Below, piece after piece: positions 7,252-31,929 of a stretch of 64,000 nucleotides of DNA; positions within the stretch are counted from its first letter, which is position 1, and each line of letters opens with the position of its first letter. The position numbers and the translations under genes are program-made. Below the pieces are notes generated by a model, which worked only from the letters and a program-made list of their open reading frames with translations, made no database searches and was not told the origin of the DNA. The stretch comes from Fibrobacterota bacterium (GTDB lineage: Bacteria; Fibrobacterota; Fibrobacteria; UBA11236), in contig JAEKLQ010000032.1 in NCBI GenBank assembly GCA_019509785.1, positions 11,229-75,228 of the forward strand. The letters run 5' to 3'.

Positions 7252-8139
7252 ATGTCCACCATGGTACCTACTTCATCTACCACCCCTTTGCGGTCTTTGG
7301 CCCTCCTGATCGCCGGCATCGCATACTGCGTCCATGCCCAAGCGCCGACGGAATCAGCCGACAGCACGAAAAATGGTTGGAAGAGGCAATTCAACGGCAT
7401 GCTCAACCTGTCCCAGGCTTATTACGACAATTGGGCCAAGGGCGGCACCGACGCCTTGACGTATGAAGTGAATTTGGGCGGAGAAGCCACCTACGACCAG
7501 GACAAATATCAATGGGACACCAAGGGCAAGGCCGTCTACGGACGCACCAAGGTCGGCTCCTTGGCTTCCAGGAAATCCTCGGACGAATTGAACCTGGAAT
7601 CCATCTATACCTATAAGCTCGCGGTGATGGTGAATCCCTTCGCCTCCCTCACGGCCCAGTCCCAATTCACCCCGGGGTATGAATATTCCGGCGATACCTC
7701 CCGCACGGAAATCTCCTATGCCTTCGATCCGACCTATTTCACGGAAACGGTCGGCTTGGGAGTGACCCCGTTCAAGGGTTTCAAGGAACGCCTGGGCGCT
7801 TCCATGAAGCAGACCATGTCCTCGCGGGAATTCAAATTCGCCGATGATCCCGAAACCGACGGGATCGAATCCTTTAAGCAAGAGTATGGCGTTACGTCGA
7901 TCACGGAATACGAAGCGGACCTGATGCAGAACATCAAGGGAACCACCCGGCTGGAAATCTTCGCGAACTTCAAGGGTTGGGACGAAATCGATGCGCGCTG
8001 GGCCAATCAGATCACAGCGAAAGTGAACTCGCTGATCAGCGTCAACTTCGAATACGAACTTCTCTACGATAAGGATTTGAGCAAAAGCCGCCAGACCCGC
8101 GAAGGCCTGGGCGTTGGCATTTCCTTCCTGAAAATTTAG
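7252..8139 (+). CDS. outer-membrane beta-barrel protein, DUF3078-like
   Basis: The signal peptide is MSTMVPTSSTTPLRSLALLIAGIAYCVHAQA. The LSQAYYDNWAKGG motif and alternating beta-strand pattern are present, and the protein ends in F (ISFLKI). Confidence 0.5.
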   Translation: MSTMVPTSSTTPLRSLALLIAGIAYCVHAQAPTESADSTKNGWKRQFNGMLNLSQAYYDNWAKGGTDALTYEVNLGGEATYDQDKYQWDTKGKAVYGRTKVGSLASRKSSDELNLESIYTYKLAVMVNPFASLTAQSQFTPGYEYSGDTSRTEISYAFDPTYFTETVGLGVTPFKGFKERLGASMKQTMSSREFKFADDPETDGIESFKQEYGVTSITEYEADLMQNIKGTTRLEIFANFKGWDEIDARWANQITAKVNSLISVNFEYELLYDKDLSKSRQTREGLGVGISFLKI

Positions 8140-8184
8140 CCTTCATCGGCCCGGCCTCAAGGCCGGGCAACCCGGGAGCCGACC

Positions 8185-10572: not shown

Positions 10573-11559
10573 ATGAGACGACAAGCTCCGATTCCCCTCG
10601 GTGCGGCGGCGGAATCGGATAGATCCCCGGGCCTTCCGGCATGGCCCGATGCATGGCACGTGGTGGTGCGAAGCGCGGACCTACCCCCGGGAAAAGTCCG
10701 GAGCCTTCCCCTCGCGGGACGGGAGCTGGTGGTCTTCCGTACCGCGGCCGGTTCCCTCGGCGCCTTGGATGCCCATTGCCCCCATATGGGCGCCCATCTC
10801 GGCTGCGCCGCCGTGCAAGGCGGAAGCCTGGTATGTCCGCTCCATGGCTTCGCATTGGATCCCTCCGGCGAAGTTCGCGCGCCCGGCGAACTAGGCGGCG
10901 GCTCGCGTCCAGGCACCCGCGCATATCCGGTGACGGAAGCTTTTGGCCTCGTCTTCGTCCATCCGGGCGGGGACGTTTCGCCGGCAAGACCGCCTCCGCA
11001 ACCTGCCGCGGGCATGCGATGGCTGGCCGGGAGACCGCTTCGCTTGCGCGCCGACTGGCGCCACGTGGTGGTCAATGCCTTCGACCTCCTGCATATGCGC
11101 TCGGTCCATGGCCGCGCCTTGACGGGCCCGGCCCGCATCGAGTCGAAGGACGGCGCCTTGGCCATGAGCTATGAAAGCGGGGTATTGCCGCTGTCCGGGA
11201 CGGCAGGGTATATCACGCGAAGATTGTCGCGGAACCGGATCAAGGTCATGCAAACGTGCTACGGCCCATGGCTCATGGTCGAAAGCACGGTGGGGCCCAT
11301 CCGGACTTGCGCCGTGTTCGGCCTCTTGCAGGAAGGCGAATACCTGCGGGTCTTCAATGCCTTCGGAACCGCCCGCCGCGACCCCCTGGCCCGCTGGGGG
11401 CTCCACCTCATCCGCCTCTTCTACTATGCCTTTCTCCGGAAAGACTTCGCCATCCTGGAAGGCATGCGTCTGCGGTTCGCGCATCCGGAAGACGAAGGCG
11501 TAGCTGCCATAACGGCCTATCTGGAATCCTTCCGCGACCTGGAGCCTTCCGAAGGATGA
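10573..11559 (+). CDS. Rieske non-heme-iron oxygenase (PAO/KshA-like, single-subunit type)
   Basis: The Rieske motif is CPHMGAHL...CPLHGF. The mononuclear-iron motif DLLHMRSVH (DxxHxxxxH) is present. The stop overlaps the next start (ATGA). Confidence 0.75.
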   Translation: MRRQAPIPLGAAAESDRSPGLPAWPDAWHVVVRSADLPPGKVRSLPLAGRELVVFRTAAGSLGALDAHCPHMGAHLGCAAVQGGSLVCPLHGFALDPSGEVRAPGELGGGSRPGTRAYPVTEAFGLVFVHPGGDVSPARPPPQPAAGMRWLAGRPLRLRADWRHVVVNAFDLLHMRSVHGRALTGPARIESKDGALAMSYESGVLPLSGTAGYITRRLSRNRIKVMQTCYGPWLMVESTVGPIRTCAVFGLLQEGEYLRVFNAFGTARRDPLARWGLHLIRLFYYAFLRKDFAILEGMRLRFAHPEDEGVAAITAYLESFRDLEPSEG

Positions 11560-13439
11560 TGGTCGCCCGGAGGAAGGCCGGCATGGATGGCATGGATGGT
11601 CTGCAACGGCCGGAGAAACTTAATCTCCTCCTCATATCGTCTGCCTCGGTCGCGAGCGCCGCATGCCTATGGATGGCTTCCCATGCGCGTGGGTGGATAC
11701 CGATGCTCTTGGCCGCGTGGATCTTCTCTTTCACGGCCAATACCTTGTTCTCCTTGCTCCATGAAGCGGTCCACGGATCGTTCTCCGCGCGGCGGCCGCT
11801 CAACGAATGGGCCGGCAGGGCGGCCTCGGCCTGGTTCCCGACGGGCCTTTCGGTGCAAAGGGCCTTCCACTTGACCCATCACCGGTTCAACCGGTCCCGC
11901 TTCGAGCAATTCGATGTCCTGCATCCGGGGGACAAGGTGTGGCTGAAATACGCCCAATGGTATTCCATTTATACCGGCCTCTATTGGGCCTTCGCCGTTG
12001 CCGCGGCGGCCCTGTTCACCTTGGCGCCGGGATCCCATCGTTGGCGGGTCTTGCGCGATCGTAAAGATCCCGATGCGGCGCAAACCGGATCCGCCGTCTA
12101 CGCCGAAGCCTTGGAAGGAGCGCCCCCGGTCAAGGCCCGTTCGGAAGTCTTGCTCTCCTTCGCCTTCCAGGTATTTCTCTTCTGGTCCCTGGGGCTCTCG
12201 CTCCGGGGTTGGGCCGCATGCTATGGCGCCTTCGCGTTGCAATGGAGCTGGCTGCAATACACCGATCATGCCTTTTCCCCGCTGGATGCCAAACGTGGCG
12301 CGTGGAATTTGCGCGTCGGTCCCTTAGGCAGGGCCTTCTTCCTCGACTACCACCTCCATCTCGCCCATCATCAGCATCCGCAAGCCCCGTGGAACCGCCT
12401 CCGCCACCTGATCGATGGCGCAACCCCGCGGCCTTCCTTTTTCCAAGTGTTCCGCGCGGCAATTGCGGGTCCTCGTAGGGAGGGGGAGTTCCCGGACTTC
12501 GCAGCGGCGCGTGGCCCGGGGTTCCTCGTCATCGCGGAAGCGGAAGCGATGTGCCTCGCGGACTTTTTCCGTTTCGGCCTAAGGCATGTCCGCTATTGGG
12601 GCATAGCCGCGGTGATCTTGTTGGACAGCATGCGGAGTTGGCGATCGCGGCGTGCCTTGCGTCTGGGCTTCGCCTTCCTGCAGCGGATAGATGATTTGCT
12701 CGACGGCCATCGGCCCGCGCCGCGCGAGCCCCTGCATATCGCGCGGAGCCTGGCGACGGCCCTCTGCGGAGGGGCGGGGGACGATCGGGATGCGGCCTTG
12801 ATCCGCATGGCGCGCCTCCTCGCCGCCGACTTGGGCGCGCTCGCGGGCGAGGAAGGTCCGTGCAAGCTGGCGGAAATCCTGAACGTGATGTCCTTGGATC
12901 GCCAACGGGTCATGGAGGGCGCGATTTGGGATAGCGAGGAATTGCAACGGCATTTCCGGAGCACCTTCCGTTTATCCCTGGATCTCCTGCTTATGGCGCG
13001 GGGGTCGGATCTGCGCTCCGCTGATCTGCCGGACCTGGCGGATGCGCTGGCATGGTGTTCGGTGGCCAGGGATCTGCGGGAAGACTTGCGCGGCGGCTTG
13101 ATTAATATTCCTCGCGAGGTGCTGGAGGTCGGCAGGGAGGGCCGGACCGGGCCTTTCGGAGAGACGACCGCGGATGATGCCAATGTGAAGGCGTGGCTCG
13201 CGGAAGAGCATGCCCGGGCCTCGGGCTTGTTGGATCGTCTGGAAGGGAACCTGGCGCTTCTGGATGCGCGTTGCCGGAATTCCGATCGCGGCCGGGGGCT
13301 TCTGCCGCTCAGCATGTTCACGCGATCCCTCCGGGATTTCCATCGCCGGCGTTTTCCGCGCCTGTACCGCTCTTCACGGATTCCGGCGATCGCTCCGAGC
13401 CCTGCGACCGTGCCGCAACCGGCCGCAGCCAGGGCATAG
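11556..13439 (+). CDS. fusion protein: N-terminal membrane fatty-acid-desaturase/hydroxylase-family domain + C-terminal squalene/phytoene-synthase-like (head-to-head prenyl synthase) domain
   Basis: The His boxes are HEAVHG, HLTHHRF and HLAHHQHPQAPW. The C-terminal half carries FAFLQRIDDLLD (cf. PSY RRxDDLVD) and SVARDLREDLRGGLINIPREVLE (cf. NILRDVGEDxxRGRxYLPxDEL). The start was trimmed to the ATGATG at 11556, which is coupled to the upstream stop. Confidence 0.7.
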   Translation: MMVARRKAGMDGMDGLQRPEKLNLLLISSASVASAACLWMASHARGWIPMLLAAWIFSFTANTLFSLLHEAVHGSFSARRPLNEWAGRAASAWFPTGLSVQRAFHLTHHRFNRSRFEQFDVLHPGDKVWLKYAQWYSIYTGLYWAFAVAAAALFTLAPGSHRWRVLRDRKDPDAAQTGSAVYAEALEGAPPVKARSEVLLSFAFQVFLFWSLGLSLRGWAACYGAFALQWSWLQYTDHAFSPLDAKRGAWNLRVGPLGRAFFLDYHLHLAHHQHPQAPWNRLRHLIDGATPRPSFFQVFRAAIAGPRREGEFPDFAAARGPGFLVIAEAEAMCLADFFRFGLRHVRYWGIAAVILLDSMRSWRSRRALRLGFAFLQRIDDLLDGHRPAPREPLHIARSLATALCGGAGDDRDAALIRMARLLAADLGALAGEEGPCKLAEILNVMSLDRQRVMEGAIWDSEELQRHFRSTFRLSLDLLLMARGSDLRSADLPDLADALAWCSVARDLREDLRGGLINIPREVLEVGREGRTGPFGETTADDANVKAWLAEEHARASGLLDRLEGNLALLDARCRNSDRGRGLLPLSMFTRSLRDFHRRRFPRLYRSSRIPAIAPSPATVPQPAAARA

Positions 13440-13441
13440 CG

Positions 13442-15076
13442 ATGAAGTTCCCCTACCTGGCGAATGCCGCGTGGAGCCTCGCCAGCCGCCCGGAAGCTTT
13501 GGCTTTCGAGCGTGGCCTCCGCGACGTGGAGACGGTCCAGCGGGCGCTCCTGCGGGACCTGCTGGCGCGCAACCGTGACAGCGGATACGGAAAGGAGCAC
13601 GGCTTTTCCACCCTCGTCCATGCCGAGGCCTATCGCGACCGGGTACCCGTGGCGGATTATGACGACATGGAACCCTGGATCCGCCGGGCCGCCCGGGGCG
13701 AGAAGGCCCTGACGGCGGAGAGCGTTCTGGTGCTCGAACCGACCGGGGGCAGCCAGGGCGGCAGCAAATGGATCCCCTATACCGCATCGCTCCGCAAGGA
13801 ATTCCGGCGGGGCCTGGCCCCCTGGATCCATAGCATGTTCCGTCGTTTCCCGGCGGCGATGCGCGGCACCGCCTATTGGTCGCTTTCGCCGCCCCTGCAA
13901 CGCGAACCGGGCTTCGAGTATTCGGTAAAGGCCGGCTTCGAAAGCGATGCGGATTACCTGGGGCCCCTCGGGCGCATCCTGGAAAGCCAAGCCTTCGCCG
14001 CGCCGTCCTCGGTGCTGCGGGAAAGGAACGCCGATGCCTTTTTCCATCTCACCGCATCGCACCTGTTGGCGTCGGAGGATCTGGCTCTCATTTCGGTGTG
14101 GAACCCTACCTTTCTCGCCTTGCTGCTCGACCGCATCCGCGCGGATCGGGAAAGCCTGCTGCGCGGCCTCCGCGACGGCGGGAGGGGCGCCCGCGCCCGG
14201 ACGGTCGCAAGGGCATTGGACGGGAGCGAGGACAGGGCCTGGATCGGAATATGGCCCCGCCTCGCCTTGATCAGCTGTTGGCGGGACGGCTGGGCCGCGG
14301 GCCCTGCGGATCGTTTGGCGGAATTTTTCCCCGGAGTCGCCTTCCAGGCCAAAGGCCTCCTGGCCACCGAAGCCCTGGTTTCCTTGCCCTGGCATGTTCC
14401 AGAAACGCTATCGGAAAACGGGAAGGAAGACGGGAGGGAAGACGGGACGTATGGCGCGCCCCTTCACCTTCTCAATTATCGCGGGCACTTTTTCGAATTC
14501 CTCGACGTCGAATCCGGTAAGACCCGTTTCGCCTGGGAGACCAAGGCTGGGGGCGTCTACTCGGTGCTGGTCACGACCGGCGGCGGGCTATACCGGTACC
14601 GGCTGCGCGATCTCGTGCGTATCGAAGGTTTCCGCTCCGCCTGCCCGGCGGTGCGTTTCTTGTCGAAGGAAGAGTCGTTCTCGGATCTGACGGGAGAGAA
14701 ATTGCAATCGGATTTCGTTCAGCATTGCGCGGAGCAGGCGTTAGCCGAGGCCGGGATCGGCACGGTCTTCTATCTGCTGGCGCCGGAGCCGGATGCGACG
14801 CCGCCCCGCTACGCCTTGCACGTCGGGCTGGAAGGGGATTCGCGGGCCAGCGCCCTGGAGGCCCGCCTGGAAGCGGCCTTGGAAGGGAACTTCCAATACG
14901 GCCTTAGCCGCAAGCTCGGGCAATTGGCACCAGTCCGAGTGGTGCCCGCCGGTCCCGGCGCGGAAAGTCGATATTACTACTATAAGGGCTTACGCGCGAA
15001 GTTGGGGGATATCAAGTGGAAGCCGTTGGAAAGCTCAGGCCCCTGGGCGGACATCCTGCGATCGAAACATCCATGA
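13442..15076 (+). CDS. GH3-family acyl-acid amido synthetase-like adenylating enzyme
   Basis: The motifs VQRALLRDLLARNRDSGYGKEHGF, VPVADYDDMEPWIRRAARGE and VLVLEPTGGSQGGSKWIPYT match GH3 (PF03321) signatures. The ATG at 13442 is 2 nt after the upstream TAG. Confidence 0.7.
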   Translation: MKFPYLANAAWSLASRPEALAFERGLRDVETVQRALLRDLLARNRDSGYGKEHGFSTLVHAEAYRDRVPVADYDDMEPWIRRAARGEKALTAESVLVLEPTGGSQGGSKWIPYTASLRKEFRRGLAPWIHSMFRRFPAAMRGTAYWSLSPPLQREPGFEYSVKAGFESDADYLGPLGRILESQAFAAPSSVLRERNADAFFHLTASHLLASEDLALISVWNPTFLALLLDRIRADRESLLRGLRDGGRGARARTVARALDGSEDRAWIGIWPRLALISCWRDGWAAGPADRLAEFFPGVAFQAKGLLATEALVSLPWHVPETLSENGKEDGREDGTYGAPLHLLNYRGHFFEFLDVESGKTRFAWETKAGGVYSVLVTTGGGLYRYRLRDLVRIEGFRSACPAVRFLSKEESFSDLTGEKLQSDFVQHCAEQALAEAGIGTVFYLLAPEPDATPPRYALHVGLEGDSRASALEARLEAALEGNFQYGLSRKLGQLAPVRVVPAGPGAESRYYYYKGLRAKLGDIKWKPLESSGPWADILRSKHP

Positions 15077-16083
15077 TACCCCTGCCTACCATGGCCACCG
15101 CGCCGACGGCCCAGGAAAAGATCCGCGGCATCCGCGAGGATCTTGCCTTCGGATGCGAAGCCCGCCTTCGGGATCTGCATGCCCTGGACGCGCGCCTGCA
15201 CGCGCGCTACGCCCTCTTCCCGGCCTTGCTCGCGGCGGGACTTCTGCTTTCCGCATCGGCCCTGCGCGGGCTGGAGATCGCGTGGCCGCGCTACGCCGCC
15301 GGCGTTCTGCTCGCCGCTCTGGGGATGAACAGCTGCTTTCTCCTTATCCATGAGGCCGTACACGGGATCCTGTTCCGGAACCCGGCCTGGAACCGGCTGG
15401 CGGGCGTCCTGCTTGCGGTCTGCGGCGGCATGGCCTTCAGCGCTTACCGTTTCCTCCACCTCCGCCACCATGAATTCCTGGGCGATCCCAGGGACCCCGA
15501 TGACTACGCCAACTATTCGCGCAGCCCGCGCCTCGTCTGGCTCATGCATTTCGTCCGCTTGGGGCTAGGCACGGTCCTCTACGTCTTCGCCATCCCCGTG
15601 GTTTCCCTGCGCCATGCCCCCGCGGCCGATCGCCGCGCCATCCTCGCGGAATACGCCTTGCTCTCGATCCTCATCCCCGCCGTGCTGTGCCTGGTTTCCC
15701 CCGGCAAGATCCTGGCCGTCTGGGGCGCGCCCTTCCTCCTGGCGAATTGGATGATCAATATCCGGGGCTTCTCCCAGCACGGCATCGCCGAGGCTTCCGA
15801 TCCGTGGCTAGCCAGCCGGTCCACCGTTCCGCATCCCCTGGTGCGGTTCTTCCTCATCAACGAGAACTTCCACCTGGAGCATCATCTTTTCCCCGGCGTA
15901 CCCGGCTATCGCCTCGCGGAATTGCACGTCCTGTTGCGCCCGCATATCCCGCGCCGCTTGCTCTGCCGTTCCTACGCGTCCTTCCTGGCCGCCTTCCTGC
16001 GGCAAGCGCCCCGCATGGACGAACATCCCATCGGCCTTACCTTCCAATCGGTCCAGGGACGCGATGGAGGAAGGTGCCTATGA
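15073..16083 (+). CDS. membrane fatty-acid desaturase family protein
   Basis: The three His boxes are HEAVHG, HLRHHEF and HLEHHLFP. The start overlaps the upstream stop (ATGA). Confidence 0.75.
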   Translation: MIPLPTMATAPTAQEKIRGIREDLAFGCEARLRDLHALDARLHARYALFPALLAAGLLLSASALRGLEIAWPRYAAGVLLAALGMNSCFLLIHEAVHGILFRNPAWNRLAGVLLAVCGGMAFSAYRFLHLRHHEFLGDPRDPDDYANYSRSPRLVWLMHFVRLGLGTVLYVFAIPVVSLRHAPAADRRAILAEYALLSILIPAVLCLVSPGKILAVWGAPFLLANWMINIRGFSQHGIAEASDPWLASRSTVPHPLVRFFLINENFHLEHHLFPGVPGYRLAELHVLLRPHIPRRLLCRSYASFLAAFLRQAPRMDEHPIGLTFQSVQGRDGGRCL

Positions 16084-17420
16084 TGGCCGGCAAGATCCGC
16101 ATCGCCTTGCTCTCCCCCAAAGGCCCGCTGTACAAGCACAAGACCGGCATCTTCCGCAAGTCCCTGCGGGTGGCGCCCTTGACCTTGACTACCTTGGCTG
16201 CGCTGATCCCGGAAGACGTACCCGCCGAGTTACGCCTGATCGACGAAGGCGTGGACGATATCCCCCTGGATCTGGATGCCGACCTGGTGGGGATGACCGT
16301 CATCACCGGATCCTCCACGCGCGCCTACGAACTCTCCGCACATTTCCGCTCCCGCGGCATCAAGGTGGTGCTGGGCGGTCCCCACGTGACCCTGGTGCCG
16401 GACGAGGCTTCCCGGCACGCCGACAGCATCGTCACCGGCTATGCCGAAGAGACCTGGCCCGAACTGCTGCGGGATTTCAAGCGCGGGAAAATGCGGCCGC
16501 GCTATTCCCAGTCCCCGTCCTTCTCCCTGGCCACCCCAGGCAACCATCCGTTTCCGCATCGGCATCTCCTGCCCAAGTCCATGTACAAGACCCGCAACAC
16601 CTTCGAGGCCACCCGGGGTTGCATCCATGCCTGCGAGTTCTGCGTGGTGCCCACGGCCTGGGGCCGCAAGCCTTTCCACAAGCCCGTGGGCCAAGTGGTA
16701 GAGGATATCCGCCGCACCGGCGCGAAGCACCTCGTTTTTTACGACCTCAACCTCATCGCCGATCCCGAGTACGCCAAGGAACTGTTCCGGGCCCTGATTC
16801 CGCTCAAGGTGCAATGGTTCGGGCTCTCCACCACCTTCGTCAACCGGGATCCGGAGCTGCTGGATCTGACGGCGAAAAGCGGATGCATGGGCTTGCTGGT
16901 GGGCTTCGAGAGCGTGAGCCGCGCTTCCCTGGCGGCGGTCAAGAAGGGCTTCAACAAGCCGGACGACTATCCTGGCTTCATCCGCGAATTGCACGGGCGG
17001 GGCATCGCCCTCATGGGCACCTTCGTATTCGGCTCCGACGGGGATACGCCGGACAGCTTCGCCGAGGTGGTGGACTTCGTGCAGGAGCATAAGATCGACC
17101 TGCCGCGTTATAGCGTTATGACCCCTTTTCCTGGTACACCGTTGCATACGCGCCTGGAAGCGTCGGGCCGCATCCTCACCAAGGATTGGAGCCAATACGA
17201 CGGCCAGCACGTGGTGTTCCAACCCAAGCAAATGACCGCCAAGCGATTGCAAGAAGGCCATGAATGGGCCTGGAAGCGAACTTACAGCCTCAAGCACGTG
17301 GCGGGTCGCATGCTGCGCATCATGCCCCATTGGCCCCTCATCCTCACGGCCAATTTCGGCTATCGGTTCTACGCCCACAACCTGGGCCGCTTCTATACTT
17401 GCCAAGGCGGGCTGGTATGA
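16080..17420 (+). CDS. cobalamin(B12)-binding radical SAM protein (class B rSAM)
   Basis: There is an N-terminal B12-binding-like domain (VGMTVITGSSTRAYELSAHFRSRGIKVVLGGPH). The rSAM cluster is TRGCIHACEFC (CxxxCxxC). The ATGATG start is coupled to the upstream TGA. Confidence 0.8.
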   Translation: MMAGKIRIALLSPKGPLYKHKTGIFRKSLRVAPLTLTTLAALIPEDVPAELRLIDEGVDDIPLDLDADLVGMTVITGSSTRAYELSAHFRSRGIKVVLGGPHVTLVPDEASRHADSIVTGYAEETWPELLRDFKRGKMRPRYSQSPSFSLATPGNHPFPHRHLLPKSMYKTRNTFEATRGCIHACEFCVVPTAWGRKPFHKPVGQVVEDIRRTGAKHLVFYDLNLIADPEYAKELFRALIPLKVQWFGLSTTFVNRDPELLDLTAKSGCMGLLVGFESVSRASLAAVKKGFNKPDDYPGFIRELHGRGIALMGTFVFGSDGDTPDSFAEVVDFVQEHKIDLPRYSVMTPFPGTPLHTRLEASGRILTKDWSQYDGQHVVFQPKQMTAKRLQEGHEWAWKRTYSLKHVAGRMLRIMPHWPLILTANFGYRFYAHNLGRFYTCQGGLV

Positions 17421-18838
17421 ACAAGATCCGCCTTACCATCGTCCACCCGTGCATCGGCCGCAAGCCCGGGGTGGAGTATATCCGCTCTTGGCAGATGGAG
17501 CCCCTGCCCGCGGCCTATCTGGCGGCCCTGGCGGCGCCGTACGCGGACATCTCGTTCCATGACGATCGTATGGAAGCGATCCCTTACGACGAGCCCGCGG
17601 ACCTGGTGGCTATCAGCGTGGAGACTTATACCGCCAAACGGGCCTACCAGATCGCCACCGAGTATCGCAAACGCGGCGTGCCAGTGGTGATGGGCGGCTT
17701 CCATGCCACCCTCATCCCCGAAGAGGTGATGGAATACGCCGAGGCCATCGTGATCGGCGAAGGCGAGCAGCTTTTCCCCAGGCTCCTGGAAGACTTCCGG
17801 GCAGGCCGGATGAAACGCGTGTATCGCGCCGAAGGGAGATCCGAGATCGGATCCATCCGTCCCGACCGTTCCATCTTCGCGGGCAAACGATATCTCAAGA
17901 TCGGGCTGGTGGAGGCGGCCCGGGGTTGCCATTTCAAGTGCGACTTCTGCGCCATCACCACCTACTTCGGCGCCACCCAGAGCCGCCGCCCCATCGACAA
18001 CGTGATCGCGGAGATCCGATCCATCAAGGACGGCCGCAAGCTCTTCTTCTTCGTGGACGACAACATCGTCTCGCATCCCAAGTGGGCCAAGGAGTTCTAC
18101 CGGGCCCTCATCCCCCTGAAGATCCGCTGGGTAAGCCAGGCCACCCTGACCATGGCCCAGGACAACGAGTTGATGGATCTGATGAAGCGGAGCGGCTGCC
18201 AAGGCGTGCTCATCGGCTTCGAGACCCTGGACCCTGCGAACCTGAAGGCCATGAACAAGCGCTTCAACGAAGTGAAAGGCGGCTTCCCCGCCGTCATCTC
18301 CAAGCTGAACCGCCACGGGCTCCGCCTCTACGCCACCTTCATCTTCGGCTACGACGCCGACACGCCCGAAAGCTTCGCGCGCACCGTGGCCTTCTGCAAG
18401 GAGCAGAACATCTTCATGGTCGCCTTCAACCATATCACCCCTTTTCCTGGTACGCAGTTGTACAAGCGCCTGGAAAAGGAAGGCCGGCTTCTCTACGGCA
18501 AGTGGTGGCTGGACGACCGCTACCAATACGGACAGGTGCCATTCAAGACCGTCCTGCCGCCGGAACTGATCCAGGAAGAATGCGTCAAGGCCCGCAAGAG
18601 CTTCTACAGCCTCGGCTCCATCCTGAAGCGCCTCCGCAACCGGGCCAATACCGGCAGCCTGTTCATGTTGCGCTCCTATTTCTTCATCAACTTCCTCCTG
18701 GGCAAGGAAGCCTCCCAGCGGGAGAACTATCCCTTGGGAGATGCCTCCTGGCGCGGGACCATCCTCAAGGCGGACGAGGACAGCCTGCGGCGCGCGGGCG
18801 TGATTCCTGAGATTCCCGCCATGCAGGCCGCGGAATGA
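17417..18838 (+). CDS. cobalamin(B12)-binding radical SAM protein (paralog of previous)
   Basis: The rSAM cluster is ARGCHFKCDFC. The architecture is the same as the upstream gene at about 45% visible identity. The overlap is ATGA. Confidence 0.8.
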   Translation: MNKIRLTIVHPCIGRKPGVEYIRSWQMEPLPAAYLAALAAPYADISFHDDRMEAIPYDEPADLVAISVETYTAKRAYQIATEYRKRGVPVVMGGFHATLIPEEVMEYAEAIVIGEGEQLFPRLLEDFRAGRMKRVYRAEGRSEIGSIRPDRSIFAGKRYLKIGLVEAARGCHFKCDFCAITTYFGATQSRRPIDNVIAEIRSIKDGRKLFFFVDDNIVSHPKWAKEFYRALIPLKIRWVSQATLTMAQDNELMDLMKRSGCQGVLIGFETLDPANLKAMNKRFNEVKGGFPAVISKLNRHGLRLYATFIFGYDADTPESFARTVAFCKEQNIFMVAFNHITPFPGTQLYKRLEKEGRLLYGKWWLDDRYQYGQVPFKTVLPPELIQEECVKARKSFYSLGSILKRLRNRANTGSLFMLRSYFFINFLLGKEASQRENYPLGDASWRGTILKADEDSLRRAGVIPEIPAMQAAE

Positions 18839-19977
18839 AACAGGTAGGAAAGGCCATCGACTCCGTTCCGGTCCTCGACCTCCACACCGTACGGGAAGCC
18901 GTTCCCGGGGACGACGCTTCCATCCGCGCCTTGTTGCGGCGTTCCCCCATGCCCGGGGATATCCGCATGGCCTTTACCCGGGAGCCCTCTTTCTTCGCGA
19001 GCCTCGAGGTTGAGGGGAAGGCGGGCCGGGCCGCCGTCGCCGAGGCCCTGGACGGCGCTATACGGGGGCTTATCGTGCGCAACGAGAAGGAAGCCTGGGT
19101 GAACGGAAACCCCATGCCCCTAGGCTACCTGAGCGGCCTACGCGTGGAGCCGATCCCGGATCGGGTGGTCGTCCTCCGGCGAGGCGCCGATTTCATCCGG
19201 CGCTGCCATGGGGAAGGCCGCGCGCGCATCTATCTCCAGACCGTCACCGAAGGGAATCGCAAGGCCGCGGCCCTGCTCTCCGCCGGGCGCCTCGGCATGC
19301 CCCGCCTCAAGGATCTGGGCGGCCTGCATACCTTCCTGCTGTCCCCTTCCGTATCACGCAAGTTACCGAACCTTCTCGGTTACGAAGTGCGGGCCGCCTC
19401 CCGGAACGATATCCCGGAGGTGATCGCTTTCCTTGGGGGCGAAGGGGCCCGCCAATTCTTCCCTTGCTACCGACCGGAGGATTTCGGCCCCCGGGGCGGA
19501 CTTCTCAAGGGCCTTTCCGCCGGCGACGTGCTCCTTCTGACCCGGGACGGCAGGCTGGCAGGAACTTTAGGCCTTTGGGACCAGGAGCCCTGCAAGCAAA
19601 GTTTCATCGCCGGCTACGGCCCCGCTCTCAATCGCATGCGGCCCTTCTATAATCTGCTGGCCCGCTTCCGGTCCCGTCCCGGCCTGCCCGCGGCCGGCGC
19701 AACCGTGCGGCATCTCAAGGCCGCCTTGCTCCGGATCGAGGGGGATGATGCCGGAGCTTTCGCCGTCCTCCTGAAGCATGCGTTGTGGAAGGCGCGCGAA
19801 CGGTCTTTGCCCTTGGCCATCATGGTCCACGAGCGCGATCCCTTCCTGCCCGTCCTGCGCGCCTTGCCTTCGGTGGCCTATGCCAGCCGCCTCTTCGCGG
19901 CTTATTTCGAGGATGGCCGGGAACTGGCGGAATCCCTGGACGGCCTCGTGCCGTACGTGGAATTGGGGGCGCTTTAG
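18835..19977 (+). CDS. hypothetical protein, possibly tandem acyl-CoA N-acyltransferase (GNAT/FemAB-like) fold
   Basis: It is a 380-aa ORF with strong codon bias, coupled to the upstream gene (ATGA). It matches no family confidently, so the fold is a guess from the composition pattern. Confidence 0.4.
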   Translation: MKQVGKAIDSVPVLDLHTVREAVPGDDASIRALLRRSPMPGDIRMAFTREPSFFASLEVEGKAGRAAVAEALDGAIRGLIVRNEKEAWVNGNPMPLGYLSGLRVEPIPDRVVVLRRGADFIRRCHGEGRARIYLQTVTEGNRKAAALLSAGRLGMPRLKDLGGLHTFLLSPSVSRKLPNLLGYEVRAASRNDIPEVIAFLGGEGARQFFPCYRPEDFGPRGGLLKGLSAGDVLLLTRDGRLAGTLGLWDQEPCKQSFIAGYGPALNRMRPFYNLLARFRSRPGLPAAGATVRHLKAALLRIEGDDAGAFAVLLKHALWKARERSLPLAIMVHERDPFLPVLRALPSVAYASRLFAAYFEDGRELAESLDGLVPYVELGAL

Positions 19978-19978
19978 C

Positions 19979-20722
19979 ATGGCTCTCCGCGGCGAAACCG
20001 TCCCGGTGGAACAACTCCAGACCGAGGAAATCCGGCGCATGTTCCTGCTCCTGGACCGGCACTACGCCAACGCCAGTTGGGAAGGATTCCGGGAGGACCT
20101 GGCGGAGAAGACCTGGGTGATCCTCCTCAAGGACGGGGATGAGTTGGCCGGATTCTCCACCCAGCTTCTGATGGAGACGCGCTTCGAGGGAGAACTACTT
20201 TCCGTGGTCTTTTCCGGCGATACCATCATCGATCCCGCCCACTGGGGATCGCCGGAGCTGCAAACCAGCTTCGCGGCCCTATTGGATCGCCTCCACCGGG
20301 GGAGGCCGGATCGCAGGCTGTTCTGGTTCCTCATCTCCAAGGGCTTCCGTACCTATCGCATCCTGCCCATCTATTTCCTGGACTTCCACCCTCGCCATGA
20401 CGTCCCCGTTCCGCCCTGGCACCGCCGCTTGCTCGATCACCTGGCGCAGACGAAGTTCCCGGCAGCCTATCGGCCCGAGCGGGGCATCTTGGATTTCAAC
20501 GGGCATTCCCAATACCTGCGCCCGCCGCTGAGCGTCATCCCGGAAGCGCGCATCATGGCCAATCCCCATATCCGTTTCTTCGCCGAGGCCAACCCGGGAT
20601 GGGCCCGGGGCGACGAATTGGCCTGCTTGGCGGAATACGCCCCGCATAATCTCACGCCGTACCTGAGGCGGCGTCTGCCTTCCATGCGCCGGAACCAGCC
20701 GGCCGCGCTTCAGGAAGGATAA
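19979..20722 (+). CDS. hypothetical GNAT-like N-acyltransferase
   Basis: WVILLKDGDELAGFST...LLSVVFSGDTIIDPAHWG resembles a GNAT beta-strand plus acyl-CoA-binding region. The ATG lies 2 nt after the upstream TAG. Confidence 0.4.
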   Translation: MALRGETVPVEQLQTEEIRRMFLLLDRHYANASWEGFREDLAEKTWVILLKDGDELAGFSTQLLMETRFEGELLSVVFSGDTIIDPAHWGSPELQTSFAALLDRLHRGRPDRRLFWFLISKGFRTYRILPIYFLDFHPRHDVPVPPWHRRLLDHLAQTKFPAAYRPERGILDFNGHSQYLRPPLSVIPEARIMANPHIRFFAEANPGWARGDELACLAEYAPHNLTPYLRRRLPSMRRNQPAALQEG

Positions 20723-21822
20723 CGGAATGCGGAAAAGAATCGTTCCCACCGCCCGGCTACCAAGGCTTTGACCCGGGATTCCAAAGGATGCAGATCATTC
20801 GTCCGGTAGGATTTTACGGTAGCCAGGTAGCCCTCCAGGAACGGGCCGGCCGCGCCGAAGGGCCCGTACCCCAAGGCCCCGTACATCCGCTCCAGCTCGC
20901 GCAAGGGATCGGCCGCCAGATCCTCGTAGCGCATCTCATGCAGCCGCCCCGGCGGGATCAGGTTCCGGTCCGCCAGATAGGCGTCGTTCACGGTCTCGTA
21001 CCGTTGCAGGATGTCCTCGTCCACTTCGGCGGGATCCGGGCTCTGGAGGTACATGTAGGGGAACAGGGTCGCGATGGTATGCCGCGAGCTCTTGAACACG
21101 GCGTAGGGGTCCCGCACGATATGCACGAAACGGGCATCGGGAAAGAGCTCCAGCAGAAGCGGGATGCGGGCCGTATGGGCCGGGGACTTGAACGCCAGGG
21201 TCCTGGCCCCATGGCGCCAAGCCAGCTTGCGGGCGAAGCGGCCGAAGGCGTCCTGCCATTCCTTCGCGGCGCCGGCCTCGGCCTCCTTGAAGGTGAGGTA
21301 ACGCGCATAATACCTCCGGTTCGCGGGGAAGCTCACCCCGCAGTAGGGGGAGCGGCCGGTCATCAGGGCCATGGCGAACTCGTCCTCCGCGGGGGAGCCG
21401 GCGGAAAGGGCCATGCCGTCCATCGGACGGGTCTTGGGGATGAAGAACCTCAGGATGGGAGCCAACCATCCTTCCGTGAGGAGGAAGGTTTCCGGGCTCA
21501 TGACTTGGAGCGTGTTGGGGCAGGCGAAGCGGTCCCGGTCCGATGCCAAGAGGTATTGCAGATGGGTCGTGCCCGCGCGCCAATGGCCCAAGACGAAAAG
21601 GGGCGGCTTCGGGGCCGGAGTCGATGCCACCTTAGCAGCGTACAACCCGCGCTCCACGCGGGAGACCAAGCTGTTAACGAGGGCGGCCGAGGTTACCGCC
21701 GCGGCGCGGTGCCAGTAACGCGGCTCCACCTTCCATCGGTTCTCCTTGAGCAGCCGCAACCACGCGCGGAAACCTATCCCGTACAAGTAATTATTCGCGA
21801 GACTTATCTTTCTGCTATCCAC
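20710..21822 (-). CDS. PAPS-dependent sulfotransferase family protein
   Basis: The 5'-PSB loop is LGHWRAGTTHLQYLL, followed by a later RDP motif (HIVRDPYAVFKS). The start is GTG at 21820-21822. Confidence 0.7.
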   Translation of the reverse strand: MDSRKISLANNYLYGIGFRAWLRLLKENRWKVEPRYWHRAAAVTSAALVNSLVSRVERGLYAAKVASTPAPKPPLFVLGHWRAGTTHLQYLLASDRDRFACPNTLQVMSPETFLLTEGWLAPILRFFIPKTRPMDGMALSAGSPAEDEFAMALMTGRSPYCGVSFPANRRYYARYLTFKEAEAGAAKEWQDAFGRFARKLAWRHGARTLAFKSPAHTARIPLLLELFPDARFVHIVRDPYAVFKSSRHTIATLFPYMYLQSPDPAEVDEDILQRYETVNDAYLADRNLIPPGRLHEMRYEDLAADPLRELERMYGALGYGPFGAAGPFLEGYLATVKSYRTNDLHPLESRVKALVAGRWERFFSAFRYPS

Positions 21823-21857
21823 CAGCGCCTTCCAACTTGATCCGTAAGGGAATATCC

Positions 21858-22658
21858 ATGAAGAAACTCCTGCTTCCAGCCGTCCTTCTTTGCCTCGCGG
21901 CTTTCACCGGCTGCAAGGACTACCATTATGTAAAAGTCGCCCAGGTGTTGCCCGTGGGCAAAACGTCCGGTCTCACGCCGGATGAACGGCAGGCGGACTC
22001 GCTGATGAAAGCGCTGGTCTCCAACCAGGCGGCCGTGGATCGCTTCCAGAAGATGTTCAAGTGCGCGGTCCTCGAGATCATCGATTTCGACAGTCTCACC
22101 TTCACGGTAAAGATAAACGCGGATTCCGCCGGCGCCGGTCACGCCAAGGCGGAATATTCCCTGGGAACGGATCCGGCCGCCAAGCCCGATCTGGTCTTGC
22201 CTATTTACCGCAAGAACCTGTCCAACCTCCTCCAGATCTTCGCCGACAATACCGTATCCGATGAAGAGGCGTACCGCATCCACCGGGCCGTCTTCGGATC
22301 TTCCCTGAGGTCCCTCTTCCAAGTGCCCGCCCTGTACGATCCGAAGATCGCCAAGCATCTGGCGCTGCCCAACTTCATCCAGATGACCCTGAAGAACGAG
22401 GGGAATTATGAATTCATGGGATCCAAGAAAGAAGCCGTGGTGACCATCGTCAACGTGGACGGCCAGTGGCTGGTGACGCAGGGCGCCTACGGCGATCCGG
22501 AAGTGAAGTGGGCCGTTACCCCCAAGCAGTTGGCGGATTTCACCCGCCTGGTATTCGAGCCCGGCAAGGGCGCCGCCACCTCCATGAGCGCCGCCCGGGC
22601 CCGCCTCAAGGAGATCAAGGCCTTCATTGACGGCATCACGGTTTATCGTCGGGGCTGA
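21858..22658 (+). CDS. lipoprotein of unknown function
   Basis: The signal peptide MKKLLLPAVLLCLAAFTGC carries a lipobox. AAGGGA lies before the ATG. Confidence 0.6.
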   Translation: MKKLLLPAVLLCLAAFTGCKDYHYVKVAQVLPVGKTSGLTPDERQADSLMKALVSNQAAVDRFQKMFKCAVLEIIDFDSLTFTVKINADSAGAGHAKAEYSLGTDPAAKPDLVLPIYRKNLSNLLQIFADNTVSDEEAYRIHRAVFGSSLRSLFQVPALYDPKIAKHLALPNFIQMTLKNEGNYEFMGSKKEAVVTIVNVDGQWLVTQGAYGDPEVKWAVTPKQLADFTRLVFEPGKGAATSMSAARARLKEIKAFIDGITVYRRG

Positions 22659-22664
22659 TGTCCG

Positions 22665-23351
22665 TTGGCCGAATTCCTCGTATACCTGAACCGGGTCGTC
22701 TGGTCCCTGGCCGGTTTCCCGGTCATGGCCTGGCTGTGGTACCGGCACGGCGGGGCCAGTGTTCCCTTGGCCGCCATCGTGCTCGGCATCCCGCTGGTCT
22801 TCGGCTATCTCATACCCGGATTGGCCATCCTGTGGCTGCGCCTCTGGGAGATCAACTCCAGGTTTTCCTATAAAGGCATCCAGATCCACCAAGGCTTCAT
22901 CTATGCCTCGGGCCTGTCCCTGGACGCTTACGCCGCCCACCATGTGCGCTTCGCCTCCCCCTGGGCCACCGTGATCGTGTCTTGCCTGCTCACGGGGTGC
23001 ATCGTCGGCTTCACGGGATGGTTCATCGATATCGCCGGGGTCAAGGCGGGCCGTATCCGCATCGATAATCCCCCCGCCCGGGCGGGCCGCGACCCGGCCA
23101 CCATCGTGACCTATTACGCTCCCGCGTGCTATTTCACCCTGGGCTTCTGCTACATGTTGGCGGTCCATTTGGTTTGGGCCTTCCTGGGCCCGGCCGCCCC
23201 GGGACTACCGGGTAACCTTCGAGATACGGTAACTCCCGGGTCACCATCGGCCTTTGCCATAGCCGCGTTGTACGCCGCAGGCTTTCTCCTCACCGCCGCT
23301 CCCGCCGGCGCGCTCTACCTTTACCTGCAAAAGAAGGGCCGGTCGGTTTGA
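22665..23351 (+). CDS. integral membrane protein of unknown function
   Basis: It has five to six hydrophobic helices. The start codon is TTG. Confidence 0.45.
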   Translation: MAEFLVYLNRVVWSLAGFPVMAWLWYRHGGASVPLAAIVLGIPLVFGYLIPGLAILWLRLWEINSRFSYKGIQIHQGFIYASGLSLDAYAAHHVRFASPWATVIVSCLLTGCIVGFTGWFIDIAGVKAGRIRIDNPPARAGRDPATIVTYYAPACYFTLGFCYMLAVHLVWAFLGPAAPGLPGNLRDTVTPGSPSAFAIAALYAAGFLLTAAPAGALYLYLQKKGRSV

Positions 23352-23389
23352 CGCCGGCATCCACAGGATTCGCGTCCTCCTTAGGCTTC

Positions 23390-24715
23390 ATGCTCGATCC
23401 CCTGGGGCGGGGCGCAGGCTTACGGCGTCGCGGCCGCCTGGTCCGCCTGGCCAAGGCCACCGGAGGCATGATCCTGGTTTTCGATCCCGCCGACGTGGAC
23501 GAGCTCCTATCCCGTCCGGATACGTTCGCCCGCTGGGAACGGGACACCGCCCCCGTCCGTTTCCCCACGGACTCGGCCTCTTCGCGCCTCATCTCGGGCC
23601 TACTGGCCATGCAGAACGGCGCTAAGCATCGGGAATTGCGGAGGCAGCTCGCTCCGGCCTTCGATCATAGTCGCCTTAAACATTACTTCGCGCTTTCACG
23701 TTCCGGCATCGCCGCTTTCGTGGAACGCCTTGAGGCATCGGGAACGGTCCAGGATCTCAACGGGATCTGCCATGCCCTGGCGATGAACACCGCCTTGCTC
23801 ACCTTGTTCGGCGCGTATCCGGGCGAGGAGTCCCGCGCCTTAGCCGATGACTTCCGCGCTTGGATGAACGCGGCCTTCTCGCCTTGGACCTTGCTGCTCC
23901 GCTTCGATGCGCCGGGCACTTCCTTTGGCCGTTTCCTAAGGCACGGCGAAAGCCTGGAAAAGCGCTTGATCGCGCTCTTTTGCAACCGCCCGGAAGCCCA
24001 AGGGGCCTTGGTCCAGGTGGTATTCGGGCCCGATTGGGACCGGCAGGTCACCGAGGCGGAGTTGGTCAGCCGCGCCGCGGGCTATTTCCAAGCCAGCTAT
24101 GAAACTACGGCCAATACCCTGGTCTGGACTTTGATCCTGCTGAACCTCCATCCCGAAGCGGCCCGCGCATCGAGGGAGGAAATCCGCGCCGTGATCGGCG
24201 AAGGCGAAATCGAATATGCGCATCTCCAGGCCCTGCCGTACCTACGCGCCGCGGTGCTGGAGAGCATGCGCCTGTTGCCGCCGGTTCTGCTTTTCCCCCG
24301 CATCGCGGTGCAGGAGCTCGCCTTGGGCGGCGTGGAAATCCCGAAGGGCGCCCGGCTCGCGTACGGACCGGCCTTGACACATCGCCTTCCGGACGTATTC
24401 GAGGATCCCTTGGCCTTCAGGCCCGAGCGGTTCCTGGGACCGGGCCCCCGCCCGGAGGGCTTCCTGTCCTTCGGGGGCGGGCCGCGCCGATGCCCCGGGG
24501 AGCAATTCGCTTTGAACGAAGTGCTGCTGATCCTGGCCGCTTGGCTGAGGCGGGGCTTTCCCCGCATCGAGACAGGCACTCATGTGAAATGCCATGGCTT
24601 GGTGGCCCATACTCCGGTCCGACCCGTGCCCTTCCGCAACATCCCCTGGTCCGAAGTTCCGGGGAAGCCTCCGCGTTTGCAAGGCAAGGTCTTCGCCGGG
24701 ATCAAGCATGCTTAA
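23390..24715 (+). CDS. cytochrome P450
   Basis: The heme-binding loop is FGGGPRRCPGEQFA (FxxGxRxCxG). The EXXR motif is LESMRLLPP. The start was trimmed to the ATG at 23390. Confidence 0.8.
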   Translation: MLDPLGRGAGLRRRGRLVRLAKATGGMILVFDPADVDELLSRPDTFARWERDTAPVRFPTDSASSRLISGLLAMQNGAKHRELRRQLAPAFDHSRLKHYFALSRSGIAAFVERLEASGTVQDLNGICHALAMNTALLTLFGAYPGEESRALADDFRAWMNAAFSPWTLLLRFDAPGTSFGRFLRHGESLEKRLIALFCNRPEAQGALVQVVFGPDWDRQVTEAELVSRAAGYFQASYETTANTLVWTLILLNLHPEAARASREEIRAVIGEGEIEYAHLQALPYLRAAVLESMRLLPPVLLFPRIAVQELALGGVEIPKGARLAYGPALTHRLPDVFEDPLAFRPERFLGPGPRPEGFLSFGGGPRRCPGEQFALNEVLLILAAWLRRGFPRIETGTHVKCHGLVAHTPVRPVPFRNIPWSEVPGKPPRLQGKVFAGIKHA

Positions 24716-25583
24716 GCCGCCCGGCCTTCTCTTCCTTGGCTTCGCGGCTGCCCTTCTGGCGGCCCTGCACGCCGGCGCCTTCGCCGCATTCTTCCATTTC
24801 GAAGCCGGGTTCTTCCTGGCCGCATTGCTCCTATGGCAGGCCACCGGCATACTGGGCGTCTCCGTCGGTTACCATCGCTTACTTAACCACCGCAGCTTCG
24901 AGTGCCCGCGTCCTATCAAATGGGTCTTGCTGTTCCTGGCCGGACTGGCGGGCCAATTGGGTCCCATCCGCTGGGTGCGCGTGCACCGTTTCCACCATGC
25001 CCACAGCGATACGGATCTGGATCCGCATACGCCCCGCCGCGGTTTCTGGTTCGCGCATCTGGCCTGGCTGTTCCAGGCAGGCCGCCGCGGGAATGAACCG
25101 GCGCTTCAGGAGCCTCCGGCCGATCTACTGGCCGATCCGGACTGCCGCTTTTTCGAACGGGCCTATCCCTTCCTGTTCTACGGCTCGCTCGCCGCCATCG
25201 GGTGGGGGTGGGGTTGGGCCGGCTTCCTCTGGCTCGGGACCTTCCGCTTGGCGGTTACCTTGCATAGCATCCTGAGCATCAACTCGGTCGGGCACGTCTT
25301 CGGCCGACGCGATTTCGACCTGCCGGACGACAGCCGGAACCTCCGCCTCTGGGCCGCCTTCACCGGCGGCGAAGCGCTCCACAACAACCACCATGCCCAT
25401 CCCCGCAGCGCCCGCTTCGCCTGCCGCCCCTGGGAACCGGACGCCGGATGGTTGGCCATCCGATCCCTGGCCGCCTTAGGACTGGCCTGGAACGTCCGCT
25501 ATTACGATCCCGTTACCGGCAGCCTGGCCATCCTCCGCCCCCGACCGCAATCGATCCCGCTTCCCTCGCCGGCCGGAACCTAA
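24708..25583 (+). CDS. acyl-CoA (delta-9-type) fatty acid desaturase
   Basis: The motifs HRLLNHRSF, HRFHHAHSDTDLDPH and NNHHAHP are present. The gene overlaps the P450 gene by 8 nt. Confidence 0.8.
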   Translation: MLKPPGLLFLGFAAALLAALHAGAFAAFFHFEAGFFLAALLLWQATGILGVSVGYHRLLNHRSFECPRPIKWVLLFLAGLAGQLGPIRWVRVHRFHHAHSDTDLDPHTPRRGFWFAHLAWLFQAGRRGNEPALQEPPADLLADPDCRFFERAYPFLFYGSLAAIGWGWGWAGFLWLGTFRLAVTLHSILSINSVGHVFGRRDFDLPDDSRNLRLWAAFTGGEALHNNHHAHPRSARFACRPWEPDAGWLAIRSLAALGLAWNVRYYDPVTGSLAILRPRPQSIPLPSPAGT

Positions 25584-28440: not shown

Positions 28441-28705
28441 GGAGGATTCCTTTCCGATCAGGATGAGGCGCGGAACCGTGCAGCGGAAAACAGCACGGCG
28501 GGCCGCGCATCAAGGAAAAAATCCTTCCCCGAGGCATGGCACTATCCGCGCGGGCCTGCAAATCCCGGAAGCTTCCGTTCCGCCGCCACTGAATTCCGGG
28601 TGTTTAGCGGGATGCTGCAAATCCGGGAGGATGCGCGTCTAAAAGGGGGGATCGCATAGGTAACACTCAAGTTACCTGTCCGGGTTCCCCGCCTGCGAAG
28701 GCCAT

Positions 28706-28741: not shown

Positions 28742-28773
28742 ATACTTCGGAACGGGATCCGCTATGCGGAAGA

Positions 28774-31897: not shown

Positions 31898-31929
31898 GTT
31901 TAGCCAGCGTTTCCGCAAAAGGAGGGTGT

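Follow-up and report, generated by a model that had tools for sequence, protein, structure and literature searches.

A five-gene cassette of a GH3 enzyme, paired B12-binding radical SAM enzymes and two GNAT proteins recurs across bacterial phyla and may direct synthesis of an amide-linked lipid

A 64-kb stretch of DNA from a Fibrobacterota bacterium (contig JAEKLQ010000032.1; hereafter the window, numbered from its first nucleotide) carries a block of 13 genes, G1 to G13, at positions 10573-25583. We confirmed that this block is genuine and that conservation is confined to a five-gene core (∼7 kb) and does not extend to the whole 15 kb. This core comprises a GH3-type adenylating amide synthetase (G3, 13442-15076), two B12-binding radical S-adenosylmethionine (rSAM) enzymes (G5, 16080-17420 and G6, 17417-18838), a tandem-GNAT acyltransferase that is the signature protein of the cassette (G7, 18835-19977) and a single-GNAT acyltransferase (G8, 19979-20722), all on the plus strand. 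Judged from their domains, they appear to be three amide-forming or acyl-transferring enzymes and a cobalamin-dependent rSAM pair. We think that this five-gene cassette forms the center of a biosynthetic operon made up by the block, and that the product may be an amide-linked, lipoamino-acid-like lipid that is modified by the rSAM enzymes and, in this organism, also oxidized and sulfated (probability about 0.45). A preliminary description of the block had suggested an operon-like biosynthetic cluster for a methylated, oxidized, amide-linked and sulfated lipid. The cluster was borne out by gene models, junctions and recurrence at about 80 loci, and such a product would also be the one favored here. 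All enzyme families named in that description were confirmed by Pfam, NCBIfam and motif analysis (the GNAT proteins by predicted fold). The combination matched no curated pathway model (NCBIfam scores were far below cut-off), and the literature searches found no paper on the cassette. As for the extent of the cluster, the five core genes proved to be conserved, whereas G9 and G10 recur in one relative and G12 and G13 were seen in this organism only.

Conservation of the five-gene core in bacteria

A scan of one genome per species with a 10-sequence G7 alignment identified 166 species having a G7 relative, and 80 loci were fetched. The core genes were then tallied by BLAST of the window proteins against the six-frame open reading frames (ORFs) of the loci. 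The neighborhood-conservation check suggested in the preliminary description gave a positive result: all five families were present in 61 of 82 non-redundant loci, and most of the others were truncated contigs. Individually, G3 was found in 74, G5 in 72 and G6 in 77 of 86 loci. In 40 of the 82 non-redundant loci, the genes were arranged on one strand as rSAM-rSAM-G7-G8-GH3, and 8 further loci had a permuted order, G8-GH3-rSAM-rSAM-G7; in several loci the five genes stood alone between unrelated neighbors. The number of rSAM genes per locus was mostly two (36 loci) or four (16 loci). The gene block is not a product of chance, as about 80 further loci also have these genes side by side.

All fetched loci came from metagenome bins or uncultured samples. 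They were distributed over more than 12 phyla, including Planctomycetota, Verrucomicrobiota, Lentisphaerota, Acidobacteriota, Chloroflexota, Myxococcota, Desulfobacterota, Bdellovibrionota, Campylobacterota, Pseudomonadota, Bacteroidota, Spirochaetota and Melainabacteria, to which G8 matches added Elusimicrobiota and Sericytochromatia. We think that the cassette has spread horizontally among phyla. It should be noted that a bin labeled 'Candidatus Woesearchaeota archaeon' also carries the cassette (locus L082, contig CAZKBE010000001.1; G7 with 34% identity, E = 5e-65), which means that the contig was wrongly binned or that an archaeon acquired the cassette by transfer. In addition, a G8 homolog (P0184) was present in Spirulina sp. 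CS-785/01, a possible cultivated carrier.

Enzymes of the core

The G3 protein matched the N, M and C domains of GH3 with 105.3, 52.6 and 24.6 bits, respectively, all above the Pfam gathering scores (23.6). Its nucleotide-binding motifs 1 and 3 could be aligned to plant GH3 structures, in that TGGSQGGSKWIP aligned to SGTSAGERKLMP and GLYRYRLRD to GLYRYRVGD of grape GH3-1; motif 2 had no clear alignment. Both G5 and G6 matched the Pfam B12-binding (PF02310) and Radical_SAM (PF04055) models above the cut-offs, and DUF4070 matched as well. The radical SAM cluster motif (CxxxCxxC) is C181IHACEFC in G5 and C171HFKCDFC in G6. The top NCBIfam scores of these two proteins were scattered among PhpK, HpnJ, BchE, AprD4 and a ladderane-type model, all far below cut-off.

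Neither G7 nor G8 matched a family model, and for G8 no GNAT model of Pfam or NCBIfam gave a match at E ≤ 0.01. AlphaFold models built from homolog alignments were confident, with a predicted local distance difference test (pLDDT) value of 92 for G7 and 94 for G8, and these predicted models contained GNAT folds, with N-myristoyltransferase, LasI and FeeM among the best structural matches. A metagenome bin named 'Fibrobacteres bacterium' contains a hypothetical protein with the same sequence as the G7 protein of the window. Homologs of G7 were scarce in a word-indexed database (74 matches), and a full scan with a hidden Markov model (HMM) returned 4,438 cluster representatives among 1.84 billion. 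One protein of 817 amino acids (P0196) combines an N-terminal B12-binding rSAM part and a C-terminal G7-type tandem GNAT in a single polypeptide, which is either a natural fusion or the result of a lost stop codon.

Gene organization of the block

The G+C content of the window is ∼62%. The 13 genes were modeled from frame-specific G+C content at third codon positions (GC3) and inspection of start codons, and the coding-frame GC3 of the models is 0.72-0.82. The preliminary description had G1 to G8 overlapping at every junction. Five ATGA overlaps were indeed found (G1/G2, G3/G4, G4/G5, G5/G6 and G6/G7), but two of the seven junctions are short gaps, of 2 nucleotides at G2/G3 and 1 nucleotide at G7/G8. 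The convergent genes G8 and G9 overlap tail to tail by 13 nucleotides, and G12 and G13 overlap by 8. The start codons of G9 and G10 are divergent, with 35 nucleotides between them (21822-21858; 23 in the relative L091), and with so little space both promoters must overlap or sit inside the neighboring genes.

An identical contig is present in two public read-set assemblies, and the automated gene calls on it agreed with our models except at G1 and G2. G1 and G2 overlap only if the ATG at 11556 is taken as the start of G2, whereas the automated call starts G2 27 nucleotides later, at the ATG at 11583, which makes this the least certain junction. The automated calls also add a spurious antisense gene of 54 amino acids and shorten G1 to 181 amino acids with loss of its Rieske domain (window 10573-11583 compared with 3888-4790 of L001), and the database annotation therefore hides a Rieske oxygenase. 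Our model of 328 amino acids is supported by full-length Rieske homologs in other genomes. Homolog lengths also back the four other ATGA junctions. The 64-kb window contained no tRNA genes and no Rfam family at the gathering threshold, and the same Rfam scan found no cobalamin riboswitch ahead of the B12-dependent enzymes. Promoter and terminator scans gave no signal above the shuffled background.

Accessory genes of the window

Several of the remaining genes encode oxidative enzymes. G1 (10573-11559, plus strand) is a Rieske non-heme iron oxygenase (Pfam Rieske, PF00355, 58.6 bits) with the cluster ligands C69PH and C88PLH and the iron site D171LLHMRSVH (D171-x2-H-x4-H179); its score for the SdmA equivalog was 51 bits against a cut-off of 600. 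G2 (11556-13439, plus strand) consists of two domains, the first of which (11556-12515) is a membrane di-iron desaturase or hydroxylase with four hydrophobic segments (FA_desaturase, PF00487, 76.6 bits against a cut-off of 29.7; His boxes HEAVH, HLTHH and HLAHH). A second membrane di-iron hydroxylase or desaturase, G4 (15073-16083, plus strand), reached 127.2 bits for FA_desaturase against the same cut-off, and its nearest named models, GntB (63 bits, cut-off 380) and CrtR (41 bits), both stayed far below cut-off. G13 (24708-25583, plus strand) is a delta-9-type acyl desaturase (FA_desaturase 55.4 bits; His boxes HRLLNH, HRFHH and HNNHH) that scored 110 bits for the DesA family model against a cut-off of 400. 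Three His boxes are thus present in each of the desaturase-like proteins, namely the N-terminal domain of G2, G4 and G13. G12 (23390-24715, plus strand) is a cytochrome P450 (Pfam p450, 173.8 bits; no equivalog at cut-off).

The only minus-strand gene, G9 (20710-21822), encodes a sulfotransferase of the 3'-phosphoadenosine-5'-phosphosulfate (PAPS) type, with 120.9 bits for Sulfotransfer_3 against a cut-off of 27 and both PAPS-binding motifs, WRAGTTHL (5'-phosphosulfate binding, 5'-PSB) and RDPYAVFKS (3'-phosphate binding, 3'-PB). G10 (21858-22658, plus strand) is a predicted lipoprotein whose N-terminus, MKKLLLPAVLLCLAAFTGC, has a signal peptide followed by a Cys of the lipoprotein type; it had no Pfam match. 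G11 (22665-23351, plus strand) has four hydrophobic, putatively transmembrane, segments and likewise no Pfam match. OlsH, SdmA, HpnJ/R/D, CrtR/W, GntB, PhpK, BchE and DesA were considered as identities for proteins of the block and rejected. As all scores were far below the cut-offs, no curated equivalog was used as an identity.

A synthase-like domain and its fusion partners

The C-terminal domain of G2 (12516-13439, the last 300 amino acids) resembles a divergent squalene/phytoene synthase. Residues 327-603 of the protein weakly matched SQS_PSY (19-20.5 bits against a gathering score of 26), a model that was matched by three of the four members of this synthase-like family (best E = 9.4e-6). 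The sole match of the family profile in the PDB was CrtM, with exact alignment at both Asp-rich motifs. These motifs are DDLLDG and RDLREDL in G2, and DDLLDG and RDLxEDL...INIP are invariant in the family. HMM searches of the six-frame translation of the whole window found the domain in G2 only, and HMMs made from other loci found no PAP2-like gene in the same translation.

Elsewhere, the domain was present in 4 of the first 86 loci and additionally in L092. It is a separate gene in three other genomes and is fused to PAP2_3 in L064, L077, L081 and L092 (6645-7973), while in G2 of the window it is fused to a desaturase; the third combination, PAP2_3 with a desaturase homologous to G4, occurs in L004 (11852-13453). 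These pairwise fusions of desaturase, PAP2_3 and synthase-like modules imply joint action on one membrane-bound substrate, which probably carries a diphosphate.

Accessory genes and flanks at other loci

Accessory genes were counted in the 68 loci that have G7, G8 and GH3. A membrane di-iron enzyme of the G2 or G4 type was found in 28 of these loci and a PAP2_3 protein in 25, with both present, usually adjacent, in 21. A full-length Rieske homolog of G1 adjoined the core in 18 loci. Homologs of G11 were found in 15 loci, usually directly after a second B12-binding rSAM pair. In L049, L054, L055, L059, L065, L074, L078, L079, L084 and others, the rSAM genes come in pairs and a G11 homolog usually follows the second pair. 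This suggests a repeated module of two rSAM genes and a membrane protein. The window has G11 but only one rSAM pair. Transporters inside the cluster belonged to the MMPL/RND type in L003, L027, L070 and L086 and to MacB-type ABC systems in L006 and L030, and in some loci the MMPL proteins had a sterol-sensing domain. There was no further conserved partner, since no family exceeded six members among the 125 flanking or inserted proteins. In some loci, a small SnoaL/DUF4440-like protein precedes the Rieske-desaturase-PAP2_3 module (L092, 4174-4851; three such flanking genes were counted).

The genes G9 and G10 are lineage-specific. They recur in one close relative, L091 (58-64% amino acid identity, with 64% for G10), which keeps the order G7-G8-G9 (convergent)-G10, and were absent from the other loci. 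By BLAST of the loci, G12, G13 and two genes upstream of the block were seen in this organism only and not beside the core elsewhere. The upstream genes (7018-10497, plus strand) end 75 nucleotides before G1 and may be co-transcribed with the cluster. One encodes a DUF3078 protein of 373 amino acids with a weak DUF481 match. The other encodes a protein of 770 amino acids that matched no family and has three hydrophobic segments near its C-terminus. On the other side, just beyond hisE/hisG, three large minus-strand genes (27094-33938) encode proteins that appear to be secreted or located at the surface: a pair of 'choice-of-anchor D' proteins (448 and 473 amino acids) and one of 1,031 amino acids with ASH, HYDIN-like and Ig-like domains.

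A possible pathway to an amide-linked lipid

We infer every substrate and chemical step of the following scheme from the gene order, folds, motifs and conservation observed above. As the core lacks a scaffold synthase, it must start from common metabolites. G3 would adenylate a carboxylic acid, which might be a free fatty acid or an N-acyl amino acid reacting through its carboxyl group, and join it to an amine without coenzyme A (CoA) or acyl carrier protein (ACP), as OlsH does. The N-myristoyltransferase-like tandem protein G7 and the single-domain G8 might move acyl groups from acyl-ACP or acyl-CoA to amino groups of the same molecule, and G5 and G6 might act on unactivated carbons, in the chain or in the head group, most likely by C-methylation. 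In this organism, the N-terminal domain of G2 together with G4, G13, G1 and G12 would carry out membrane tailoring by adding hydroxyl groups or double bonds, the synthase-like domain of G2 would probably bind a diphosphate-bearing, perhaps isoprenoid, substrate, and G9 would add an anionic sulfate. In other phyla, a PAP2_3 protein of the phospho-head-group transferase or phosphatase type stands beside the hydroxylase instead. The sulfotransferase may take the place of the head-group enzyme PAP2_3 that is seen in other lineages.

Several lines of evidence favor a lipid. OlsH, the sole characterized bacterial GH3, is an ATP-dependent N-acyl-ornithine synthetase that ligates free fatty acids to ornithine, and those who described it predicted different N-acyl amino acids as the products of further bacterial GH3 proteins (PMC12493201). 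GNAT-fold enzymes make lipoamino acids by acyl-ACP-dependent N-acylation (PMC12479983), and B12-dependent rSAM enzymes modify lipid tails in archaea, according to a preprint (bioRxiv 10.1101/2025.10.20.683597). The recurrent accessory proteins, which are membrane-embedded oxidases, PAP2_3 proteins and lipid-type exporters, argue in the same direction.

A number of observations weigh against this reading. No product has been observed, every carrier is uncultured and no gene reached any curated equivalog threshold. Among proteins of solved structure, AprD4 is the nearest relative of G6, and this enzyme is an aminoglycoside diol-dehydratase and not a methylase, and the structural match of G8 to LasI and FeeM was no better than that to generic acetyltransferases. 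The membrane accessories are absent from more than half of the loci. The 125 flanking proteins include 6 MFS transporters and 3 AurF-like oxygenases, which would fit a soluble metabolite as well, and the core has no O-acyltransferase of the OlsA/OlsI type, no ACP and no fatty-acid synthesis gene. A more specific version of the lipid reading, which we consider possible but doubtful, is that the cassette makes a new class of membrane or outer-membrane lipid: an amide-linked, multiply N-acylated amino-acid lipid that is C-methylated or cross-linked by the paired B12-dependent rSAM enzymes and that carries a lineage-specific phospho- (PAP2_3) or sulfo- (sulfotransferase) head group.

Alternative explanations

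The main rival explanation, which appears unlikely, is that the cassette makes a water-soluble specialized metabolite, such as an antibiotic or signal, from an amino acid, amino sugar or aromatic acid. GH3 would then form an amide, the rSAM enzymes would catalyze C-methylation or rearrangement, and the GNAT proteins would N-acetylate as tailoring or self-protection; a comparable sequence is known from phosphinothricin biosynthesis, in which N-acetylation precedes P-methylation by PhpK. Such a scheme would agree with the small acids used by characterized plant GH3 enzymes (indole-3-acetic acid, jasmonate and 4-substituted benzoates), with PhpK and AprD4 being among the highest-scoring NCBIfam models for G5 and G6, and with the many best GNAT structural matches that are acetyltransferases acting on amino sugars or aminoglycosides. 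The MFS transporters and AurF-like N-oxygenases in some flanks would fit as well, and the patchy distribution, resembling that left by horizontal gene transfer, is typical of secondary metabolism. However, no phosphoenolpyruvate mutase, sugar or inositol synthase, non-ribosomal peptide synthetase (NRPS) or polyketide synthase (PKS) was conserved with the core, the accessory genes that recur encode di-iron enzymes integral to the membrane, PAP2_3 proteins and MMPL exporters, and the only bacterial GH3 characterized so far uses fatty acids.

It is improbable that the block tailors an isoprenoid lipid (hopanoid, carotenoid, sterol or polyprenyl), with the rSAM enzymes as C-methylases of the HpnP/HpnR type and the synthase-like domain making or binding the isoprenoid. 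The preliminary description had argued against known isoprenoid templates from the lack of a cyclase and a phytoene desaturase; neither of these, nor a prenyl-diphosphate synthase, was found among the window ORFs scanned, but the argument is weakened by the squalene/phytoene-synthase-like domain of G2, which had been missed and which keeps both Asp-rich motifs. Weak matches of G1 to the sterol demethylase SdmA, G4 to CrtR/CrtW and G5/G6 to HpnJ/HpnR, together with the sterol-sensing MMPL proteins of some loci, also speak for an isoprenoid. On the other hand, these matches to named models were 6-10 fold below the equivalog cut-offs, the synthase-like domain is present in only the 4 of the first 86 loci and L092 compared with about 70 for the core, and GH3 and two GNAT proteins have no role in known isoprenoid pathways, so that this explanation accounts for the rare synthase-like domain only. 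The modification of a ribosomal peptide or protein, as in lipidated RiPPs (peptides made by the ribosome and modified after translation), with the rSAM enzymes C-methylating residues and a GNAT protein N-acylating the peptide, is very improbable. Both B12-dependent rSAM and GNAT enzymes occur in RiPP pathways, and weak NCBIfam matches to the RiPP rSAM ApyD and the P450 ApyO were found. Nevertheless, when 1,991 small ORFs near the core in about 80 loci were clustered, no family occurred in more than three loci, and the best candidates (three loci) resembled antisense remnants; moreover, the tight operon packing leaves no space for a precursor gene, no leader-peptide-recognition domain or protease was found, and GH3 enzymes act on free acids. 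There is next to no chance that unrelated housekeeping genes merely lie side by side with overlaps that are annotation artifacts. The dependence of the G1/G2 overlap on start-codon choice (automated G2 start at 11583) would be in its favor, but it is already refuted by the synteny kept across more than 12 phyla, the other four ATGA junctions agree with homolog lengths, and fusion proteins link the families.

Comparison with known systems

One of the closest known systems is the OlsH/OlsI pathway for ornithine lipid in the planctomycete Singulisphaera acidiphila (PMC12493201), in which a bacterial GH3 is part of a lipid-type operon and catalyzes the step proposed here for G3. However, G3 scored only 42.2 bits on NF052613 (cut-off 620) and matched it over residues 26-118 only, which hold the N-terminal motif. 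An alpha/beta-hydrolase of the OlsI type is lacking, as no alpha/beta-hydrolase or PlsC-type acyltransferase match was found among the 13 genes, and the partners in the window are two GNAT proteins and two B12-binding rSAM enzymes, which the Ols pathway lacks.

With the N-acyl amino acid synthases FeeM, NasY, OlsB and GlsB and the AHL synthase LasI, G8 appears to share the GNAT fold, LasI and FeeM being among the top structural matches of the predicted model. G8 differs in an extra helical insertion and in being always paired with the tandem-GNAT protein G7. The latter shares only 7-16% sequence identity with the tandem GNAT proteins N-myristoyltransferase, MshD, Eis and MAB_4324, has no Pfam match, and its family is set apart from them by invariant residues in a W-D-Q motif and a C-terminal E-L-G-x-L.

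G5 and G6 share the architecture of B12-binding, rSAM and DUF4070 domains with HpnP/HpnR, HpnJ and the archaeal glycerol dialkyl glycerol tetraether (GDGT) ring synthase and methylases, and from these lipid-modifying enzymes it is evident that unactivated carbons in membrane lipids are accessible to class B rSAM chemistry. The scores for the hopanoid models were nevertheless low (83-89 bits against 578 for HpnJ, 38-62 against 650 for HpnR). No hopanoid or archaeal-lipid genes lie nearby, no squalene-hopene cyclase was found among the window ORFs scanned, and the rSAM genes of the cassette occur in pairs, two or four per locus.

Significance of the cassette

A literature search on GH3, radical SAM, B12, acyltransferase and aminolipid retrieved the OlsH work and no paper describing the cassette; one 'GH3-like' match was a glycoside hydrolase and was discarded. 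All of the enzyme superfamilies and bacterial GH3-dependent aminolipid synthesis are already known. From its gene content, the cassette appears to be defined by two GNAT families that lack annotation, by the obligatory association of these with GH3 and a B12-binding rSAM pair, and by a modular decoration with oxidases, PAP2_3 or sulfotransferase. The product stands a fair chance of representing a new class of lipid.

Bacterial GH3 proteins were tied to lipid synthesis only in 2025, with OlsH, and most of their thousands of homologs have no assigned role. The cassette links one GH3 clade to the two GNAT families and paired cobalamin-dependent rSAM enzymes in lineages from Planctomycetota to Campylobacterota, and its G7 family comprises about 4,400 sequence clusters yet has no Pfam model. 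At ∼7 kb, the five-gene core is small enough for direct heterologous expression. If the product is a soluble metabolite, the cassette would still represent a widespread orphan pathway. If it is a lipid, the cassette would provide a new biosynthetic logic for non-phospholipid membrane lipids and a case of B12-dependent rSAM chemistry that is rare on bacterial non-isoprenoid lipids. As nearly all producers are bacteria from sediment, soil and groundwater that have not been cultured, such a lipid could be an unassigned environmental lipid or biomarker, and the cassette would then serve organic geochemistry as a marker gene set for a class of compounds made by uncultured lineages.

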